A stretch of DNA of 64,000 nucleotides from a virus. Its lineage: Duplodnaviria > Caudoviricetes. The translations under genes were made by a program, and so were the position numbers. Where the stretch lies: positions 1 through 64,000 of the IMG/VR virus record IMGVR_UViG_3300031134_000004, one strand, 5' to 3'. Position 1 is the first letter of the stretch. Every line of letters starts with the position of its first letter. The notes below the pieces were generated by a model that had not been told where the DNA came from, did not search any database, and saw nothing but the letters and a program-made list of their open reading frames with translations. Of the stretch, positions 2,522 to 23,440 are shown piece by piece.

Positions 2522-4771
2522 ATGATTTTATTTGCAAACGATTGGAAGAAATATCCAACTGCCAAACCTAACGTAAAAACCACCAACCAAAGTTTCGTCG
2601 AGTTAGCTGCCAAGTACCGCTCGATGGGGATCAGGAACCACGCATTCATTCTGGCGCTTGTTGACCAAGACCTCGTGGGCGTCGATCCGTTTGACCCAAA
2701 TCTCTCGATGGAGACGATGGGTAAGATTGCGCTTGAGTGCAGTATCAATCCGTGGTTCTTCTTCCGCGAGATTGCGCGCGCACCAGCAATTGCCGGTAAT
2801 GAGACTGTGATGCTCGAAGCGAACCGAGGCAACATCGCCTTGTTCTGGAGCTTCTTTAATCACGTCATGATTATCTTGATTCAGATTCGTCAGACCGGTA
2901 AATCGTTCTCGACCGATATCTTGATGACGTACCTCATGAACATCCTCTGTCAAAACACAGCAATTAACTTGCTGACGAAGGATGACACGCTGCGCCGTAA
3001 GAACATTGAGCGCTTGAAAGAGATCGCTTCGATCATGCCGCGTTATCTTCAGCAGCGTACTCGTGATGACTCAAACAACGGTGAAGAGATCACAGTCAAA
3101 GCACTGGGTAACAGCTATACCACACACGTCCCACAATCCTCGCCAAAGCGGGCATACAACATGGGTCGTGGTTTGACGTCACCAATCTTCCACATCGATG
3201 AACCACCGTTCCAGTCGAACATCTCGATTGCACTGCCAGCATCCCTAGCAGCAACCGGCGCCGCAGTTGACCGCGCCAAAGCACAAGGCACACCTTACGG
3301 CACCATCTTGACAACCACCGCCGGTAAGAAAGATGACCGTGATGGCAAGTACGTGTTTAAGCTCTTGAACGACGCTGCTGTCTGGACAGAGAAGTTCTTC
3401 GATTGCGAAGACATGGAAGACTTGTACCGGATGATCAAGCGCAATTCAACCGGTGGCGTTATCCGTATCAATGCAACGTTCAATCACCGCCAACTCGGTA
3501 AGACTGACGAATGGCTCAAAGAGAAGATTGATAACTCGGTGGCTGAAGGCGAAGATGCGGACCGAGATTACTTTAACCTCTGGACTTCGGGTAACGAATC
3601 GCACCCACTCACGGTTGATTTGCTCGAACGCATTGTCCGTAGCCAGAAAGATGTGCTGGAAACAGAAATCAGTAAGGAAGGTTACATCTTCCGCTGGTAC
3701 ATTCCGGAAAACGAAATCGAATCACGCATGGACAAAACCTTCTGCATACTGGGTGGTGACCCAAGTGACGCTGGTGGTGGTGATGATATCGGTTTCGTGA
3801 TGAAAGATATTCGTACCTTGGAAGTCATTGGTGCGTGTCAAGTCAACGAGACGAACTTGATTTTGTTCTGCCGCTGGCTGACGAACATGTTTATTCGATT
3901 CCCCAATTTCGCGGCTAACATCGAGCGGCGTAGCTCGGGTGCTGCTATTTTGGACTATCTCCTTATCATGTTGCCTGAACACGGCATCGATCCATTCAAG
4001 CGCCTCTTTAACATGGTGGTGCATGAGTCGGACGAAAAGCGTGAGCGTTTCCGTGAAATCCAAATCCCAATGAACCGTCGTAGTTCAGACGTGTACATTC
4101 GCCACAAGAAAGCCTTCGGGTTTGCAACTTCTGGTGCGGGGATCTTTAGTCGTACTGAGCTGTATTCGACCACACTGAAAAATGCAGCCAAACAGTGCGC
4201 AGACAAGATCAACGACAAGAACTTGATCGACCAGATCACGGGCTTGATTACAAAAAACGGACGGATTGACCACGAAGACGGCAACCACGATGACTTGGTG
4301 ATCGCGTGGCTCATGTGCATGTGGTTCCTAACGAAAGGTAAGAATCTGGCGTTCTACGGCATCAATTCGAAAGACATCGGTGCCGATTGCATCGTAGTCA
4401 AAGAAGACTTGACGCCGACTGATATGGTACAGCGTCACGAGCAGCAACGTATCCGCGCCCGGATCGAAGAAGTCTACAACCGCTTGATGTACGAGCAAGA
4501 CGACTTTGTCTGTCAGCGTCTGGAGCATGAGCTGTTGGCTCTGGATAGCCAGATCATCTTGGAGGACGATGAAATCTACAGTGTGGACGAACTCATCCGA
4601 CAAGCAGGCGACAGTCGTCGTGGCAAGAAACGACAGCAAGTTAGTACGTATCAACACCAGCAAACCTACGGTAATACGGTAGGACACCATTCGGCTGGTG
4701 CGTGGTATAACCAAGGTACATTTGCAGATCGTCCAATGGGCGCTGGAGAAATGATGAACCGGTTCCGTTAA
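2522..4771 (+). CDS. terL: Terminase large subunit
   Basis: Walker A in IRQTGKS, Walker B FHIDE, C-terminal RNase H-like nuclease motifs (GGDPS ... HDDLVIAW); 749 aa. Confidence 0.93.
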   Translation: MILFANDWKKYPTAKPNVKTTNQSFVELAAKYRSMGIRNHAFILALVDQDLVGVDPFDPNLSMETMGKIALECSINPWFFFREIARAPAIAGNETVMLEANRGNIALFWSFFNHVMIILIQIRQTGKSFSTDILMTYLMNILCQNTAINLLTKDDTLRRKNIERLKEIASIMPRYLQQRTRDDSNNGEEITVKALGNSYTTHVPQSSPKRAYNMGRGLTSPIFHIDEPPFQSNISIALPASLAATGAAVDRAKAQGTPYGTILTTTAGKKDDRDGKYVFKLLNDAAVWTEKFFDCEDMEDLYRMIKRNSTGGVIRINATFNHRQLGKTDEWLKEKIDNSVAEGEDADRDYFNLWTSGNESHPLTVDLLERIVRSQKDVLETEISKEGYIFRWYIPENEIESRMDKTFCILGGDPSDAGGGDDIGFVMKDIRTLEVIGACQVNETNLILFCRWLTNMFIRFPNFAANIERRSSGAAILDYLLIMLPEHGIDPFKRLFNMVVHESDEKRERFREIQIPMNRRSSDVYIRHKKAFGFATSGAGIFSRTELYSTTLKNAAKQCADKINDKNLIDQITGLITKNGRIDHEDGNHDDLVIAWLMCMWFLTKGKNLAFYGINSKDIGADCIVVKEDLTPTDMVQRHEQQRIRARIEEVYNRLMYEQDDFVCQRLEHELLALDSQIILEDDEIYSVDELIRQAGDSRRGKKRQQVSTYQHQQTYGNTVGHHSAGAWYNQGTFADRPMGAGEMMNRFR

Positions 4772-7539: not shown

Positions 7540-8210
7540 TTCCTTTAGTGTTGTGGGTGAAAGTAGAACAGAGTTCCACAATATAGAGGGGTACTAAGGT
7601 GTGTTTTTACATCCGGCTCTCTAAGACGTTTATAAGTAAAGGGTAGGGAAGTTATAGATGAGTTCGAGAAAAGCGCTCAGAGAGGCTCTGGTAAAGTCCT
7701 AGGCGCCCTCCCGCGCCGCCCGCCGCCCGCCGAGGACGCCCGCCGCCAGCCGCCTTGCTATCTCTTTCTTTTTGTGGTTTCTTACCCATGGGGTGAATTA
7801 CGATACCATGTAAGCTATGCTGTTTGGCCTTCGGCTTGTCGTTGGATTTCTTCTTAAAAATTTTCTCCTTTTAAAAAGACAAAGAAGGAGACGATCAATC
7901 AAGCAGGGCTCTAAAGGCCCTGCGTTTAATTACTCTCGTAAATAGAATAAAGCAAACACAAGAGAAAAATTACTCGTGTATTCCATGTTTTGTAGAGACC
8001 AGAACAACGGCTCCGCCAATAGTAGATATAGAGAGGTTTTGGGGGATAGGGGGCCTTAACCATAGAGAGCCCCTCGAAGGGGGGCTCTCTCATTATAAGC
8101 GAAAATCGTCTGGGGGAAAGGGGGTTTTCTATTTTCAATTTGATAACACTTGGGGAGTTTCGTAGGTTTCTTACTGAGCTAGGGTATCTCATGATCAACT
8201 AATTGAGGTA
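7540..8210. other. 670-bp non-coding spacer between divergent genes (origin-like or regulatory)
   Basis: No credible ORF; CGCC tract 7703-7754, pyrimidine then purine tracts, hairpins at 7903-7923 and 8064-8090, G5 runs. Confidence 0.55.
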
Positions 8211-8213
8211 ACC

Positions 8214-8372
8214 ATGACAACACCCTTGTTATTGACTTACACCCCAACACCCCCTGTGAACTACCGTGTTTCACTTGTGTCGCCTTACGGCAATGCGAAA
8301 TTACCTACGCTTGCAGAAGTCTTGATGCAAATCCTCTCCTACTACCTGAAAGCCGAAGATGTCCAACAATAA
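8214..8372 (+). CDS. Small hypothetical protein, 52 aa (below ORF-track cutoff)
   Basis: GAGGT RBS; MTTPLLLTYTPTPPVNYRVSLVSP...; stop overlaps start of next gene. Confidence 0.5.
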   Translation: MTTPLLLTYTPTPPVNYRVSLVSPYGNAKLPTLAEVLMQILSYYLKAEDVQQ

Positions 8373-9768
8373 CGATTCCTTTGTCGGCTTTCCAGGCCGC
8401 TGCCCGATTGGTTGCAACTACCCTACCGTGCAAGACACCATCGACTACGAAATGACGATGGGTGAGCTTGCCAAGTTCTACGAGATTCGTCGGATGCAGT
8501 TACCAAGTGGTGCCATGACCAGTGTTCGGTTCCCACAAGGTCTGGACCCAGCTGATCCGTTGTTCATGTACAACGTGGCCAAGCGTGTCAAAGAAAACCA
8601 AATGCGCGCGGCGCAAGCAGCTGGCGTTGGTGATGAAGTTTTCGATAAGGTACTTAGTACTGAAGGCAACCTGATGTCGCTCATTCAGATGGGTCTTAGT
8701 CCTGGTAAGACGCTGCCTGTCACGCGAGAACAACTTACACTGTACACCAAAAACATGGGTGTGCGTCTGGATGTACCGGACAGAAACGGGATGGTCATTC
8801 CGTACGATGAAATGAAAGCGTTTGCTGAAAAGCATCCTGACCGCGTCGCTTCTATTTGTACTGTGGGTTTGAGTGCTAGTCCATCGTCGGCTGCAGAGGT
8901 AGCTGCTGTGAAACGCGCCGTCGAGACGCCGCCCTGGACTTTCTCGCTCAATGGTCTTCCAGATTCGCCAGCTAAAACGCTTGAAGCCATGCTGCAAAAG
9001 CAAGCTGTCGAGACGCTCGGGATTTCGCCAGAGTTACTCTCGCCCGATGTGAACGTTACTTCCATGAGTGAGCTGACCACCCGTTGGCAAAATCAAATCC
9101 GTAATAACAGTAAGCCCAATGCGCTTGCCAAATACATGGAGTACGCGTTTGCAACCTTTGCCAAGGCCGCTACCGATTACCTGGGAACGTTGGTGGTCAC
9201 AACGGTTAAGGACGTGCGAGTACTCAAAGCCAAGCGCGTCCATGCAACTGGCTCGATGCGTAACAAACGTCGCCGCCACTACTACGACTTGACAACGCAT
9301 CAGATCGTTACTAAGCGCTCGAAGTTCTCTGGCGTGTTTCCTGTCTCAATCGGTGAAATGGTGCCGGTGCCGGGAACGGATAAAGTTGAAGTGACTGCCA
9401 CGTTCCAGTACGACAAGCGTGAAAGCACGATGGCTGGTTCACTGAACGACTCGCTCGACAAGCTCACCGATGTGAATGCAGTGGTGGTCTCTCCAAGTGA
9501 GCCTGTTGCCATAGTGCTGCGCGCCAGTAATGAAGCGGACCGCGAAGCACTGCTTAAGGTTCTCGAAGAACATCGCAAAGAAGGACGGTGCGAGTTCAAA
9601 GAGATTGCCAAGAACCACACCGGCTACCGTTTCTGCGCTACGTACAACGACATCGTGAAGGTCGAACCACCAAGTATAACGATCGAGCCACGCATGCATG
9701 TCGATAAGGATGGCAAGATCGAGATCAGTAGTTTCAACATCGTCAGTCCACCACCTGACAAGAAATAG
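8359..9768 (+). CDS. Hypothetical protein, 469 aa
   Basis: Long ORF with phage-typical codon use; no recognisable motif. Confidence 0.75.
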   Translation: MSNNNDSFVGFPGRCPIGCNYPTVQDTIDYEMTMGELAKFYEIRRMQLPSGAMTSVRFPQGLDPADPLFMYNVAKRVKENQMRAAQAAGVGDEVFDKVLSTEGNLMSLIQMGLSPGKTLPVTREQLTLYTKNMGVRLDVPDRNGMVIPYDEMKAFAEKHPDRVASICTVGLSASPSSAAEVAAVKRAVETPPWTFSLNGLPDSPAKTLEAMLQKQAVETLGISPELLSPDVNVTSMSELTTRWQNQIRNNSKPNALAKYMEYAFATFAKAATDYLGTLVVTTVKDVRVLKAKRVHATGSMRNKRRRHYYDLTTHQIVTKRSKFSGVFPVSIGEMVPVPGTDKVEVTATFQYDKRESTMAGSLNDSLDKLTDVNAVVVSPSEPVAIVLRASNEADREALLKVLEEHRKEGRCEFKEIAKNHTGYRFCATYNDIVKVEPPSITIEPRMHVDKDGKIEISSFNIVSPPPDKK

Positions 9769-12179: not shown

Positions 12180-12602
12180 ATGAGTACCCAAGAAGCAGAA
12201 AAGCAGTTCAGCGTTGTCAACACCCACGTTACCGATGTCAATGGTAGCCCACTGCACTACTCGTTCACCACGGGCCTTGACGGCTTTGGTTTGAAAGAGA
12301 TGTGCGTCTACGGCGTGAATCCCGGCGTGGCCGTGCCGACCATCAACAAGCTGGTACGCGCTTACCGTGAAGGCAAGATCGCCACCGACCGCAAGTACCC
12401 CGACATCATCAAAGACCTGGACGTTGTACTTAAAGACGTCTCGGCAACCGACTCGATTAAGCGCTTCGGTCCTAGCAACAAGAACCCGGTGATTGCACGC
12501 GACATGGTCCAGATCATCTGGCCTGATGCAAACAACATCTTCCCCTGGGAACCGGGTTTCGACGAAAGCCAGCGTCACCTGCAATACGCCCTGTACCGCT
12601 AA
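12180..12602 (+). CDS. DUF4262-like protein, 140 aa
   Basis: AACAAGGAG RBS; YSFTTGLDGFGLKEMCVYGV and QIIWPDANNIFPWEPGF fit the DUF4262 pattern. Confidence 0.6.
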   Translation: MSTQEAEKQFSVVNTHVTDVNGSPLHYSFTTGLDGFGLKEMCVYGVNPGVAVPTINKLVRAYREGKIATDRKYPDIIKDLDVVLKDVSATDSIKRFGPSNKNPVIARDMVQIIWPDANNIFPWEPGFDESQRHLQYALYR

Positions 12603-12616
12603 ACAAGAAAGGCTTT

Positions 12617-13039
12617 ATGTCCGATCTTCTCAAGAAACTATTGGGTCTGAACGCTTTGACGATGGCGGCTATCAATGCGTTTGCAAGCAATGTCGAGATT
12701 GCAAACAGCGCTGTCTCTTACGCTGAGCTTCCAGAAAAGACAAAGACGATGCTCGAAAAGATTGGGTTTATCCCAAGCGAGCGCGTCTACGATCCGAATG
12801 TAGAATATTCGCCTGAAGCACAAAACGTGTGGAAGATTTTCCAGCAAGCTGTTTTCGATGAAACGCACAACCTCTTGGGAGAATTCCTCGCAGAGCGTTC
12901 TGCAAAGTTCACCGAAGCTGGCTACCCGTCAAAGTTCGTGCATCACCGTTTCGTGATTGAAGGTGCTAAATCAGTGGTGGTGCGTGGTGTCCAGATCATG
13001 ATCAACGACATCGGCTTCATCATGGTCAACTACGATTAA
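12617..13039 (+). CDS. Hypothetical protein, 140 aa
   Basis: AAGG RBS; operon context. Confidence 0.65.
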   Translation: MSDLLKKLLGLNALTMAAINAFASNVEIANSAVSYAELPEKTKTMLEKIGFIPSERVYDPNVEYSPEAQNVWKIFQQAVFDETHNLLGEFLAERSAKFTEAGYPSKFVHHRFVIEGAKSVVVRGVQIMINDIGFIMVNYD

Positions 13040-13056
13040 AACAAGGAGCAATTCCA

Positions 13057-13380
13057 ATGAAACAACTCCCAGCCCGTTTGTCCCTCTTTAAGCGCATCAA
13101 CGAAGCGCTCGATAAAGCCAACGTCGAAGGCGACTTCAAAGTCACCAAGAGCCCGAAGGTTACCATCATCCGTATCGCACCTAAACGTGCTACCGGTATC
13201 CCGACCATCGTCATCCAGAAGAAGGTTGACAACATGATCGTCTACCTGCTCGATCGCTTCGATGTCAAGACCGTCGGCATCATGTCGATTCGCAATGCTG
13301 ACGATGCGAAGAAGTTCGTCAAGTGGTACATGCTGATGCTGGACCTGGCAGCATTTCGTCGCGACCCCGCTGGCATCTAA
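13057..13380 (+). CDS. Hypothetical basic protein, 107 aa
   Basis: AACAAGGAG RBS; strong codon bias. Confidence 0.7.
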   Translation: MKQLPARLSLFKRINEALDKANVEGDFKVTKSPKVTIIRIAPKRATGIPTIVIQKKVDNMIVYLLDRFDVKTVGIMSIRNADDAKKFVKWYMLMLDLAAFRRDPAGI

Positions 13381-13794: not shown

Positions 13795-13866
13795 ACCCTC
13801 CAGCAATTTTTTACACCACCCAAGCTTGTTATAGAGCAAGCCCTATTTTAAACAAGGAAAAATACC

Positions 13867-14856
13867 ATGCAACAAATCAACAAAGGTCGCGTCTCGTTCT
13901 ACGGTCACGGCGGCTGCGGCACCAATATCGGCAGCCAACTCGAACACTTCCGTGAACGCGGTGAAAAGTCGTTCGCCGATCTGACCCTGACCTACGTCGA
14001 CACGAGCCGCTCGAACCTGGCCAAAAGCATCGACCCACGTCACTGCTACCTGATCGACGGCCTGGACGGTTCGGGCAAGGTCCGCGCTGAAAACCACGAA
14101 GTCATCACCCAACACATCCCGGTCCTGATGCAACAGCACCCAGCCCAAGACCTGGCCATCGTCGTGCATTCCCTGGGCGGCGGTTCCGGTTCGGTGAGCG
14201 GTCCTCTGCATGTGTCCAAGCTGATCGAAGCGGGTATCCCAACCATCGTCATCGGCGTGGCATCGGCCGACACCAAGATCGAAGCGTCGAACTCGCTCAA
14301 GACCCTGAAGTCGTACTACTCGATCGCCGGCATGCACGACGAACCACTCGTCCTGGCCCCGATCATGAACTACGCCGACAAGTCGCGTGAAGAATCCGAC
14401 GGCGCCGTTGTCCGTCTGGTGCTGGCCCTGTGCGCGCTGTTCTCCCGTGAAAACGAAGAACTCGATAGCAAAGACCTGACCCATCTGCTGAAGTTCAACA
14501 AGACGACCAGCTTCGGCGCCCAACTGGCAGCACTGACCCTCGTGGAAGCCGGTGGCACCATCGCCGATTTGGGCAACGTGATCTCGGTCGCTACCCTGGC
14601 CAAGCGCGGCGATCGCACTGCCCTGCCGGTGCCGACCGAATACCAGACCGTCGGTTATCTGGCAGACGACGCTGACGAAAAGCTGCGCAAGCGTGCGCCG
14701 CTGCACTTCATCATCAGCGACGGCGTGCTGGGCGACATCGCCAAGGATCTGCAATCTATCGTGGCCCGTTTCGATGCGGCCAGCGGCATCCGTCAAACCC
14801 AGAGCAATCTGCTGGGCAAGAACGACAAGGCTGCCGATAACGGCCTGGTGCTGTAA
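13867..14856 (+). CDS. phuZ: PhuZ tubulin (phage spindle protein)
   Basis: YGHGGCGTNIG, DGSGKVRAEN and SLGGGSGS tubulin/FtsZ motifs; 329 aa; C-terminal GLVL tail. Confidence 0.95.
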   Translation: MQQINKGRVSFYGHGGCGTNIGSQLEHFRERGEKSFADLTLTYVDTSRSNLAKSIDPRHCYLIDGLDGSGKVRAENHEVITQHIPVLMQQHPAQDLAIVVHSLGGGSGSVSGPLHVSKLIEAGIPTIVIGVASADTKIEASNSLKTLKSYYSIAGMHDEPLVLAPIMNYADKSREESDGAVVRLVLALCALFSRENEELDSKDLTHLLKFNKTTSFGAQLAALTLVEAGGTIADLGNVISVATLAKRGDRTALPVPTEYQTVGYLADDADEKLRKRAPLHFIISDGVLGDIAKDLQSIVARFDAASGIRQTQSNLLGKNDKAADNGLVL

Positions 14857-14866
14857 TAACAACAGC

Positions 14867-14884
14867 AAAATGTAGTATAGTGTG
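14867..14884 (+). promoter_or_regulatory. Putative promoter of ncRNA-1
   Basis: AAAATGTAGTATAGTGTG is 15/18 identical to AAATTTTAGTATAGTATG at 19211-19228. Confidence 0.5.
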
Positions 14885-15630
14885 AAAGGATGCCTTCGCC
14901 ATGACTTGCAAAAGTATCTTGGCGAAGGTGATCATCATTGGAGCGGGTAGCGCCTTTTTAGGTGTGAAAGCAATGGCTGAACATATCTTGGAATTTGGGT
15001 ATGTTCATCGGCTGGTGCAGGATAACTTTAAAGACATTACTCGCTTTAGTGCACTCGTAGTACTGGGCAACAATTGGAACTCACGTTCAGCGGAAACTCC
15101 AATTGTTTTTCTTTGTTCTCTAGCTCCCCGTTGGGTGAAACCGCATGCTCCCGGTGCATGTATGGATCTCACATTGGAAAGCTGATACTATGAGTGAGAT
15201 CATCTCGCCCCTTTAGTAATACTCACCTAGAAGCGGCTCCACATGGGGTCACTGGCCATATTGACATAAGTGTAAATTCATATCGTGGCAACCTAAACTT
15301 TACTCCAGAGGGGTAAATGCGGACCTGACCCTATTTTCTGAACTTCCGTCGAACGAGGCTATGAGTACTCGAGTACTCTGAGAACCCGATTGATAGTGGG
15401 AAACTCATCAAAGTCACTCGACCGCCATTGGATCAAATGGAAAACCCTGGCTTCGACCTTGCAGACTCTGTATGGAGTACAACTTGCATCCCGCATTAGG
15501 GGGGTTGAGGCCAGTTACTTGGCTGCCTTATATCGAAATACGCCCTGTGGAATAATCACCCTTTCGAGGACTTTTCCCCACATGTCGTGCTGGATTACGG
15601 GTAGCCAAGTAACTCTGGGTTTTATGCCGT
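14884..15630 (+). ncRNA. Candidate large structured ncRNA-1 (about 750 nt), class unknown
   Basis: No credible ORF; at least ten stems visible by eye, for example CCTTCGCCA/TGGCGAAGG, AACAATTGGA/TCCAATTGTT, GATCTCAC/GTGAGATC, CCAGTTACTTGGCT/AGCCAAGTAACTCTGG. Confidence 0.65.
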
Positions 15631-15690
15631 CAAAATGAAATCAATAAAAACTACACACAACAATCGTATAGTGGTTACAACGGAGCCGTC

Positions 15691-16074
15691 ATGAATGAAC
15701 ACCGCGCCACCTTAATCCAAGATATCCGTGAATACCTTGGCATCCTCCTACCTGTATTGCGTCCGATCTTAGAACAATACGCCTACACTGGGATTGATGA
15801 AGAAAGCGCCATCAAGTGGATCATCACCGAAGAACTCGAACTGATCCACTGCATGTGCGCCAACAACCATATTCGCAGTAACACTTATGAGCGCATCTAT
15901 TCGCAGCTCAATAGTGACTTACCACAGTCGTTGTCGATTCTCACGAACCAATACATCCGTGCACCTAGACTGTACGATGAGTCGTGTATCGACATCCATT
16001 TACATGAGCGTGATTTGTACATCGGGTACTTCTCGCCACCACCTCCTTTCGTTCAATACGAACCTCTGATATGA
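15691..16074 (+). CDS. Small protein, array member 1 (127 aa)
   Basis: GGAG RBS; C-terminal IHLHERDLYIGY. Confidence 0.7.
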   Translation: MNEHRATLIQDIREYLGILLPVLRPILEQYAYTGIDEESAIKWIITEELELIHCMCANNHIRSNTYERIYSQLNSDLPQSLSILTNQYIRAPRLYDESCIDIHLHERDLYIGYFSPPPPFVQYEPLI

Positions 16075-16712
16075 ACCCAAATCTCTTCCCAGTCTCTGAG
16101 ACGTACTTCGGATATTGTACTGACCTTGCCGTGCACATCGAGCAAGTGTTGTACCAGTACCTGAAGAACGACAAGCCAACACCTACCATCGTTACAGGTG
16201 GCAAGCGCCTTATCCAAAACCCGACTGTGGGTGTGGCAATCATCCACGCGTTCGCACAGCGCTACGTCGACGAATTCTGCGCCATGTGGTCGGGCAAAGA
16301 AGTGCCAGCGTTCGAAGAAGTCATGCTGCCATTCATCAAGGTCGAGTGGCGTTGCGTGTACGATGAAGATGCAAAAGAAAACGTGCTGAACTACGAACTG
16401 TTCGAGCAACTCTCGAGTCTGCTGATCGACTTGCGAACAGACTTGCGCGTCTTCATGGGTCAGAACCACTGGGTCATGCATTTCTTCAAGGCCAATGGTT
16501 CGGACTTTTACGTGCGTAAGACAATCGATTATCGCATCTACGACTGGGAACGTCGGATGACTGATGGTTCGTGGACAAACACTGTAGAAGAAGTGGAAGT
16601 CTTGAGCGGCGAATTGACCGCTAACGAACAGTCGCTTCTCGACGAAAAGAAACACCGCGCCAAAGAAGAACGCGAACGCATAGCGAACGACGCTCTCTTC
16701 GGACACATTTAA
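16071..16712 (+). CDS. Array member 2 (213 aa)
   Basis: ATGA overlap; MHFFKANGSDFYVRK. Confidence 0.72.
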   Translation: MNPNLFPVSETYFGYCTDLAVHIEQVLYQYLKNDKPTPTIVTGGKRLIQNPTVGVAIIHAFAQRYVDEFCAMWSGKEVPAFEEVMLPFIKVEWRCVYDEDAKENVLNYELFEQLSSLLIDLRTDLRVFMGQNHWVMHFFKANGSDFYVRKTIDYRIYDWERRMTDGSWTNTVEEVEVLSGELTANEQSLLDEKKHRAKEERERIANDALFGHI

Positions 16713-18807: not shown

Positions 18808-19212
18808 ATGCTTAACCTTCCTGACCTTAAGAACAAAGTCACGTATAACTTCGACGTGTACCCAACTGCCTTCATTGGCAACAACTATAAGAACGTGACC
18901 GTATTGGGCACCATCACCCGTGAGATGGCCAACATGGAAATCGACACGGCAGCGCTGCACATCCAATGCTTTAACACGCTGCCTGCGGGTACACCGAATG
19001 ATCCAGATGCGTACGACTACGTCAAGCTGCGCTTCCCTGACGGCAGCACAACCGTCATTGGCTTGGCCTGGATCAAACCAGAAACAGTTGAACTGATCGA
19101 CGCCCGTGTCATTACGGTCAAGATCGGCGGCCGTACGCCTGCTGACTTGGCCCGCATCAAAAACATCCTGGTGCAAAACGGGTTAAACGATCTGGAATTT
19201 AGTATCAGCTAA
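18808..19212 (+). CDS. Conserved phiKZ-like hypothetical protein (gp49-like position), 134 aa
   Basis: Beta-rich (TYNFDVYP...NYKNVTV); last gene before the DNA polymerase as in phiKZ synteny. Confidence 0.65.
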   Translation: MLNLPDLKNKVTYNFDVYPTAFIGNNYKNVTVLGTITREMANMEIDTAALHIQCFNTLPAGTPNDPDAYDYVKLRFPDGSTTVIGLAWIKPETVELIDARVITVKIGGRTPADLARIKNILVQNGLNDLEFSIS

Positions 19213-19228
19213 ATTTTAGTATAGTATG
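19211..19228 (+). promoter_or_regulatory. Putative promoter of ncRNA-2, ending in TATG
   Basis: Ends in TATG, the phiKZ late-promoter core with G as +1; this G is the first base of the predicted closing stem. Confidence 0.55.
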
Positions 19229-19600
19229 CAGAACCATGGAGAAGAGTTTTTTTACTGGCTTGCCCCCATGATTTGCGACAGAGGCGTGACACGTCTTGGT
19301 TGCTGTGCTTAGCGTTTCGTGCTAGAACGTTAGGTAGAGAACTTTCAATAACCAGTTACCCCTCTGGGTGTTGAAAGGATGTTAGGGCAATCAAACTTTC
19401 CATTATCGCTACGGGATTTCACTTCCTTGTTTGACCGTATCGATAGCAACTCTTTGGCTGGATGCGAGGGTCAGGTCTGCGTCTCCCCCGACGCACATAC
19501 CCCTTTCGGCGTCGCTCGAGAGTTGGAGAGGGTGGTTGTTCTGCTGGGAAAAAAGGGCTATTTAGGGAGAGGATCGAAAGGTCTTCTCCCATTTTTTTTT
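19228..19600 (+). ncRNA. Candidate structured ncRNA-2 (about 370 nt) with its own terminator
   Basis: 5' GCAGAAC (19228-34) pairs with GTTCTGC (19538-44); internal stems CATGG/CCATG, TATCGCTACGG/CCGTATCGATA, CAACTCT/AGAGTTG, TGCGTC/GACGCA; terminator at the 3' end. Confidence 0.68.
19565..19600 (+). terminator. Intrinsic terminator
   Basis: GGGAGAGGATC-GAAA-GGTCTTCTCCC followed by a T9+ tract. Confidence 0.85.
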
Positions 19601-19719
19601 TATGCCCCCAAAATAGGCTTCGGCCTTTATGCCGTATCTTTTTTTATTTGTCTAGCTCATGGAAAACAAAGAAAAATTATCGAGCGGGCTCATGGTGTAG
19701 ACCAAACAAGGAGCCGTTC

Positions 19720-23400: not shown

Positions 23401-23440
23401 GCGTCATAGAGGCTGGGGTCATCCCCAGCCCTTATGCCGT
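23401..23440. terminator. Bidirectional hairpin, family member
   Basis: GCGTCATA-g-AGGCTGGGG-tcat-CCCCAGCCCT-TATGCCGT. Confidence 0.75.

Follow-up and report, generated by a model that had tools for sequence, protein, structure and literature searches.

A large conserved RNA fold and an overlapping small gene probably share the interval after phuZ in an uncultured chimallivirus

What occupies the 834 nt between the phage tubulin gene phuZ and the next gene in IMG/VR virus record IMGVR_UViG_3300031134_000004? We analyzed the first 64 kb of this 224,654-bp record (hereafter, the window). A preliminary description, made from the sequence alone, had read most of the interval as a non-coding structured RNA of about 750 nt. 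Part of that reading holds, in that a conserved, multi-domain fold is present on the plus strand; the interval is not free of open reading frames (ORFs) over its whole length, however, since its first ∼330 nt are a small gene. We consider it very likely that a conserved, expressed structured RNA is encoded here on the plus strand. The full account that we favor, in which one transcript yields two products and a stable 3′ RNA acts in trans, we rate only slightly better than even. It builds on what the data establish: a conserved fold, its strand, a terminator-type end, a conserved ORF, and the presence of the fold in RNA libraries without its neighbors.

We aligned the interval with those of L002, L003 (identical to L004 and L005), L007 (identical to L008), and, in part, L090; the four to five metagenomic relatives that align have PhuZ proteins 52–63% identical to that of the window. 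Across four genomes, the consensus-fold z-scores of the flanking controls were −2.0 (phuZ) and −2.55 (downstream genes), whereas the core (15070–15634) reached −8.3. Measured against column-shuffled alignments, it scored −6.65 on the plus strand and −3.2 as the reverse complement. RNAalifold predicted 107 pairs from the four sequences, 29 of them with compensatory double changes. The alignment with L090 added gave 99 pairs, with 92.9% of cells canonical and 23 pairs that were fully canonical and carried a double change. When the 3′ partners were slid by 1–3 columns, 32–44% of cells were canonical and 0–2 such pairs remained; this control is lenient, as the alignment tested is also the one that yielded the fold, but the gap is still large. 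Between the window and L002, identity is 77% in the core, 69% in phuZ DNA, and 60% in the next gene, and third codon positions differ at 44–61%, so selection on the non-coding core is no weaker than on the neighboring genes. Relatives do not share any ORF of the core, and the element is single copy in the genome. Judged by these comparisons, the predicted non-coding fold is strongly conserved from about 15070 or 15131 to 15634.

All eleven stems listed in the preliminary description are present where it placed them. Among them, stems 6, 7, 9, and 11 are kept by compensatory changes; stems 3 and 5 are also kept in L002, as read by eye from the alignments. The claim that the region folds better than chance stands on the consensus fold across relatives and not on single-sequence minimum free energy (MFE). 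The MFE z-score was −4.1 on the plus and −1.4 on the minus strand for 14884–15630, −3.3 compared with −0.6 for the core, and +0.6 for the 3′ part of phuZ. The coding stretch just downstream (15700–16264) also scored −3.2, with a weak consensus-fold z-score of −2.55, so folding energy cannot settle the matter by itself. In this genome, z-scores from single sequences are misleading.

A 31-mer index search with positions 13800–16100 as the query (2301 nt) matched four RNA libraries, each from a different study and habitat (phyllosphere, soil, freshwater sediment, and mosquito), and a query with the core only returned the same four. Each library contributed one contig, 99–100% identical to the window: 15073–15492 (X7), 15141–15381, 15254–15450, and 15532–15696 (X19). 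The contigs are confined to 15073–15696, and none lies on phuZ, on the 5′-most 170 nt of the small ORF, or on the body of the next gene. By our own estimate, four of four contigs would fall inside this 27% of the stretch with a chance of ∼0.001 under uniform placement, although the uncovered parts are not in themselves evidence of silence. We take this distribution as moderate evidence that the folded part builds up separately from its neighbors.

The preliminary description had seen no ORF with a ribosome binding site in this interval. This proved incorrect: ORF 14901–15185 has AAAGGA ∼10 nt before its ATG and stays open in relatives. The Shine–Dalgarno site, which reads AAAGGA in the window and AAAGGAGG in relatives, is kept together with the ATG, and the frame is open at 94–105 aa in six diverged genomes (the window, L002, L003, L007, L090, and record P0002, which carries a 101-aa gene with product P0125). 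A random 94-codon frame of the same composition would stay open ∼0.6% of the time by our own estimate. Substitutions are fewest at codon position 2, more frequent at position 1, and most frequent at position 3 in six of six pairwise comparisons; many identical residues are encoded by different codons; and gene callers report the ORF in most relatives. Because the frame, the Shine–Dalgarno site, and the ATG are kept, the codon-position pattern is that of a gene, and relatives have it called, we regard the ORF, as far as sequence comparison can tell, as a real, conserved, lineage-specific small protein gene. An ESM Atlas look-up of the protein gave no usable match. The 5′ part of the interval also has a consensus-fold z-score of −6.55 (four genomes), and in our reading it is both coding and structured.

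The features of the locus are as follows.

13867–14856, plus strand: phuZ (phage tubulin), matching Pfam Tubulin and TubZ_C_2 and PHROG 4733 tubulin PhuZ (E 1.5e-76).
14867–14884, plus strand: promoter-like motif, an A-rich stretch followed by TAGTATAGTGTG, kept in L002, L003, and L090.
14886–14928, plus strand: Shine–Dalgarno site AAAGGA followed by a 9-bp hairpin, CCTTCGCCA/TGGCGAAGG, seen in the sequence.
14901–15185, plus strand: small ORF of 94 aa with a hydrophobic N terminus, M..NVAKVIIIGxG, overlapped by conserved RNA hairpins.
15069–15107, plus strand: hairpin AACAATTGGA/TCCAATTGTT in the 3′ third of the ORF; RNA-library cover starts roughly here (15073).
15131–15211, plus strand: two hairpins (15143–15161 and 15165–15201) followed by an invariant single-stranded YUCGCCC, with the same fold in five orthologs.
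15235–15407, plus strand: central domain, with a hairpin at 15235–15250 and a multi-branch structure closed by GGCC/GGCU at 15254–15360.
15363–15378, plus strand: invariant palindromic hairpin GAGUAC-UCGA-GUACUC in the central domain, followed by a hairpin at 15379–15407.
15438–15629, plus strand: 3′ half, closed by a predicted long-range helix of UGGAAAACCC (15438–15447) with GGGUUUU..CCG (15617–29).
15513–15614, plus strand: long-stem 3′ domain of 102 nt with a 16-bp closing stem, GUUACUUGGCUGC.../...GUAGCCAAGUAAC.
15619–15631, plus strand: terminator tail TTTTATGCCGTC, directly following the long-stem domain and recurring throughout the genome.
15640–15672, plus strand: conserved block AATAAAAACTACACAC..CAATCGTATAG, outside the RNA and invariant in the window, L002, and L003.
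15691–16074, plus strand: next gene (127 aa), the first in a run of small genes and the downstream boundary of the element.

The helices with the best support are 15143–48/15156–61, 15165–72/15194–15201, 15235–40/15245–50, the 15254–15360 multi-branch structure, 15363–78, and 15513–28/15599–15614. The hairpin at 15069–15107 shows A-U to G-C and G-U changes in L002 and has a related hairpin in L007, as read from the alignment. The two hairpins of 15131–15211 refold alike when each of the five orthologs is folded singly, with compensations such as GAUCUCAC/GUGAGAUC compared with GUCUUACUUG/CAAGUAAGAU. A covariance model of the central domain (R2) scored 153–167 bits in four relatives. The long-range helix would enclose a sub-domain at 15449–15512 and the long-stem domain. 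Its main run (15441–15447/15617–15623) has one compensatory position and 4 of 28 cells non-canonical, and its outer three pairs have 2 of 12; because of these cells, we treat it as tentative. A strict ungapped search for additional covarying helices or pseudoknots passed two helices, since the variable regions are not structurally aligned. In L090 (583–989), one sub-domain of the central domain has the form of the window and L002, and the next is nearly identical to L003; this mosaic suggests recombination inside the RNA gene.

The interior of the long-stem domain holds an invariant helix (AUCGAAAUACG/CGUGCUGGAU) and a UUCG-capped hairpin. A covariance model of this domain (R1) also found it after phuZ in more distant relatives (L087 at 45.8 bits, L009 at 36.5, and then L041, L010, L045, and L012), although long hairpins score on both strands and the weaker matches need care. 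In these distant matches, compensation is complete in the middle of the stem, and all have in common a GGUUAYC...GRUAAC frame that is absent from the genome’s ordinary terminators. An nhmmer profile of the core matched only the four closest relatives and L090, and an exact-pattern scan of IMG/VR for the palindromic-hairpin block gave no match. A scan of Joint Genome Institute metagenomes for the pattern TCGAAATACG..CGTGCTGGAT returned 34 matches, none related by nhmmer, and all were set aside as chance.

The 3′ end carries the signature of termination in this virus family. In phiKZ, 61 terminators have been mapped by ONT-cappable-seq, with a hairpin followed by TTATKYYGT as the motif (PMC10914365); the same motif is found in 201phi2-1, where a terminator trap showed that eight of the terminators halt transcription (PMC11512511). 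The genome contains ∼40 intergenic GC-rich hairpins with (T)TTATGCC(G) immediately after them, on both strands [for example, at 23432, 55073, 4783(−), and 38216(−) of the window]. Many of these have GTCATAG to their left, which gives the same signal on either strand, as in bidirectional terminators. The element has the same arrangement, a stable stem (15513–15614) directly before TTATGCCGT, but its stem–loop is ∼100 nt instead of the usual ∼20 nt, and the ordinary terminators of this genome are hairpins of 8–12 bp. Beyond this end and ahead of the small genes, the block at 15640–15672 consists of AAAAACTAC, a spacer of ∼12 nt, and TATAG, with TATG in its place in L007, L009, and L010; AAAAACTAC lies ∼24 nt ahead of TATAG/TATG. 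Middle promoters of phiKZ have an AAanTTACc motif at about −24 and a TATG start (PMC4666361), and by analogy, the block is likely the middle-type promoter of the next gene.

At the 5′ end, no terminator hairpin lies between the phuZ stop codon and the element. The preliminary description had noted that the 18-nt motif at 14867 is common to a second structured block, and indeed 15 of 18 positions of 14867–14884 match 19211–19228, ahead of the second structured RNA. The non-virion RNA polymerase of phiKZ starts at TATG, with G as +1 (PMC4666361); the 14867 motif resembles this sequence without being equal to it and may be a promoter for such a polymerase. Scans for sigma-70 promoters and canonical terminators found none, and none are expected because the phage has its own polymerases. 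The preliminary description inferred an independently transcribed RNA; a promoter-like motif does lie upstream, but since there is no terminator after phuZ, the RNA could equally be a processed 3′ part of a phuZ–ORF transcript. The ATG of the small ORF (14901) starts on the final base of the 5′ arm of the 9-bp hairpin and continues into its loop; the arms are kept in L002, L003 (with one G-U), and L090, and a shorter version is found in L007.

Taken together, we propose the following course of events. A single transcription unit would start at the 14867–14884 motif, arise by read-through from phuZ, or both, and would end at a chimallivirus-type intrinsic terminator in which the 102-nt 3′ domain serves as the hairpin, followed by UUUUAUGCCGU. 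The 5′ third would be translated into the 94-aa protein, with the start-codon hairpin probably limiting initiation, and the 3′ two thirds (∼15070–15630) would fold into a multi-domain RNA of ∼500–560 nt. Capped by the terminator, this RNA would outlive the rest of the transcript and accumulate as a stable non-coding RNA. It may then act in trans as a protein scaffold, a decoy, or a self-assembling particle rather than by base-pairing; we infer the promoter, processing, stability, and trans action of the RNA. We think a role as such a structured particle most likely; no antisense targets were found in the phage, and the internal loops are invariant.

Several points weigh against this account. 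The consensus fold comes from the same alignment in which compensation was counted, and with four complete distinct sequences and one partial sequence to align, covariation power is low; the R2 model of the central domain finds nothing outside the closest relatives. The RNA contigs give no ends, strand, or level, and DNA contamination of the libraries is possible. The contig 15532–15696 crosses the terminator into the start of the next gene, so either termination is incomplete or this piece is DNA. The promoter-like motif reads TGTG/TTTG, without the canonical TATG. As for the small gene, its family has 5 members in 5.8 billion proteins, the 94-aa ORF has no Pfam or PHROG match, and its ESM model has a predicted local distance difference test (pLDDT) score of 0.36.

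Could the fold instead work in cis? As a 3′ untranslated region (UTR), it would stabilize the mRNA of phuZ and the small ORF against 3′ exonucleases, tune translation of the ORF, or possibly mark the message for export or localization. The missing terminator between phuZ and the element fits this reading, as do the start codon within a conserved hairpin, the conserved structure that reaches into the ORF (z-score of −6.55), and an RNA end at the operon terminator. Nevertheless, 500 nt with invariant loops and internal helices far exceeds what protection needs (ordinary terminators have 8–12 bp), and the RNA contigs lie on the fold and not on phuZ or the 5′ part of the ORF, which suggests that the fold persists apart from the mRNA. 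We therefore think a purely cis-acting 3′ UTR rather unlikely. Regulation could also point downstream: as a leader or attenuator of the small genes, the element would sense a signal and choose between termination at 15622 and read-through. There are precedents in phiKZ and 201phi2-1, which have many 5′ UTR terminators and two read-through modes (PMC10914365, PMC11512511), and the 5′ UTR elements of phiKZ yield short RNAs by premature termination. Moreover, contig X19 spans both the terminator and the next start codon, and the U-tract can pair with the upstream A-rich strand. However, the terminator and the next gene are separated by a distinct conserved block of middle-promoter type, a conserved and coding-like ORF lies within the element, known phiKZ-type leaders are shorter than 250 nt, and no Rfam riboswitch or leader matches. 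We judge a leader to be distinctly improbable.

Two further readings dispense with a functional RNA. Palindromes in a DNA-level element (a replication origin, a packaging site, or a PhuZ-related centromere) would mimic RNA stems; the element sits between phuZ and a block with the DNA polymerase gene at its end, another conserved non-coding block lies directly ahead of the polymerase, and no origin is known for these phages. Against such an element stand the strand asymmetry, the many conserved G-U pairs that would be A-C on the other strand, the lack of repeats or iterons, a GC skew that is flat as an origin marker, and RNA contigs that cover the region. This makes a DNA-level role very unlikely. 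The core could also be decaying, mis-called, frameshifted, or fast-evolving coding sequence, since short ORFs exist there (for example, 15390–15638, 82 aa) and the first third is truly coding. Yet core ORFs are not kept in relatives, their codon scores are negative, they have no family matches, and the changes are compensatory across helices rather than periodic, so we give a coding core hardly any credence.

We compared the favored two-product RNA with known RNAs. At gathering thresholds, Rfam 15 had no match in the window, with GOLLD, ROOL, OLE, introns, and RNase P included, and at E values up to 10, it gave for 14800–15750 a lone 22-nt chance match outside the element. ARAGORN found 0 tRNA or tmRNA genes in the window and none in close relatives. 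A group I/II intron or an RNase P RNA was rejected in view of the Rfam result and of the element’s place between complete genes, which flank it on both sides. With these empty searches, the preliminary statement that the element could not be matched to group I/II introns, RNase P, or tmRNA is upheld. In being phage-borne, several hundred nucleotides long, multi-domain, and kept by covariation, the RNA resembles GOLLD and ROOL, which have been studied by cryo-electron microscopy (PMC12286853). The invariant palindromic hairpin at 15363–15378 may mediate self-association; GOLLD and ROOL form homo-oligomers of RNA only. Their usual company is tRNA genes; relative L023 has tRNAs in the same slot, whereas the window has none. 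Unlike GOLLD and ROOL, the window RNA is fused to a small ORF and an operon terminator, has a narrow and fast-diverging distribution, and matches no Rfam family.

Closer in kinship are UTR-derived RNAs of phiKZ and 201phi2-1 (3′UTR_PHIKZ298, 5′UTR_p40, and sRNA005), which come from the same virus family and share its terminator grammar (PMC8545117, PMC10914365, PMC11512511). They accumulate apart from the mRNA made with them, as we propose for the window RNA. However, they are 70–250 nt long with one or two hairpins and come from other loci, whereas the window RNA has 500–560 nt and about ten helices. We rejected a phiKZ-type 5′ UTR small RNA (<250 nt) on account of the length in the window (∼560–750 nt), the conserved ORF inside, and the separate promoter-type block before the next gene. 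We likewise rejected synteny with 5′UTR_p40: phiKZ PhuZ is gp39, and gp40 follows phuZ by 54 nt, but p40 is another locus tag. The spacing after phuZ is 54 nt in phiKZ and 240 nt in RSL2.

RNAIII of Staphylococcus (with hld) and SgrS of Escherichia coli (with SgrT) combine a small ORF and a large conserved fold, partly overlapping, on one transcript, as we propose for the window. Measured by what defines such dual-function RNAs, the window has a conserved, coding-like ORF and a conserved fold, both found by sequence comparison. RNAIII and SgrS act by base-pairing with target mRNAs, whereas no target complementarity was found in the genome of the window phage. Apart from the terminator motif, no stretch of ≥13 nt complementary to the phage genome was found, a result that speaks against antisense action.

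The slot after phuZ appears to hold stable RNAs more widely. At 46 phuZ loci of the subfamily, the gap before the first ORF of ≥110 aa is ≥400 nt in 29, ≥600 nt in 23, and <250 nt in 15. Because L023 carries tRNA-Thr(tgt) and tRNA-Ser(tga) there (3973–4139), followed by a terminator hairpin and TTATGCC, we regard the slot as a conserved home for stable RNAs whose occupants diverge fast or have been replaced. Burkholderia phage FLC9 (L015, LC667451) has unannotated gaps at 7985–8754 (770 nt) and 12530–13065 (536 nt), in the same positions as the two structured blocks of the window. In its clade (FLC9 and five metagenomic IMG/VR relatives), the post-phuZ block of ∼700 nt has a mean identity of 81%, and its fold has 207 predicted pairs, 46 of them with double changes, and a consensus-fold z-score of −13.9. 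The slot is the same, with an ORF of ∼75 aa, a long fold, and then a hairpin followed by TTTATGCC, but there is no detectable sequence or covariance-model similarity to the window RNA; the observed likeness is in layout. Ahead of the divergent DNA polymerase gene, the second non-coding block of the window (19213–19640) is likewise kept in L002, L003, and L007. Its fold has 97 predicted pairs, of which 33 show compensatory changes, and the block begins with TATAGTATG and ends with two terminators of hairpin and TTATGCC.

A bolder reading, which we consider unlikely as a whole, is that phages of the PhuZ subfamily keep a fast-evolving but structurally constrained large RNA directly after phuZ that forms a stable particle, RNA-only or a ribonucleoprotein with a phage or host protein, needed for infection. 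Such a particle might organize replication or transcription in the phage nucleus or soak up a host RNA-binding defense or ribosome factor. The folds of the window clade, the FLC9 clade, and other post-phuZ slots would then be divergent versions of one ancient RNA gene. In the literature library searched, no paper connected phuZ with a structured RNA.

Nucleus-forming phages separate transcription from translation, and an abundant non-coding RNA in such a phage raises the questions of where it resides and what it binds. The known non-coding RNAs of chimalliviruses are short, and the window RNA is much longer. To our knowledge, large structured RNAs without known function are rare, and each so far has revealed unexpected biology or architecture. 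The layout can be tested at the bench because cultured FLC9 (host Burkholderia glumae) has an unannotated element of the same layout. For annotation, the result would fill an apparently empty stretch of such records with two genuine genes, one for a small protein and one for an RNA.

We assign the source to an uncultured chimallivirus, a nucleus-forming jumbo phage, because PhuZ is present and FLC9 PhuZ is the nearest among named phages (42% identity). PhuZ has 560 matches in 5.8 billion proteins, the top ones at 62–63% identity and then a series at ∼50%; a single-sequence scan of IMG/VR with PhuZ gave no match, nor did any of 50,697 phage records match the interval by BLASTN. Near-identical DNA was found in phyllosphere, biofilm, plant, and food metagenomes. 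The upstream gene order is kept in relatives, with a DUF7484 gene on the minus strand, one or two small genes, and phuZ. After phuZ, relatives have a small called ORF of 97–111 aa or none, a gap of ∼470–870 nt, a gene of 126–131 aa, and a run of small genes ending with SH3DP; a gap of ∼500 nt and the divergent DNA polymerase follow. The G+C content of phuZ is 58–65%, compared with 44–50% in its neighbors, and an antisense ORF (13843–14868, 341 aa) that exceeds phuZ in length is a side effect of this high G+C content.
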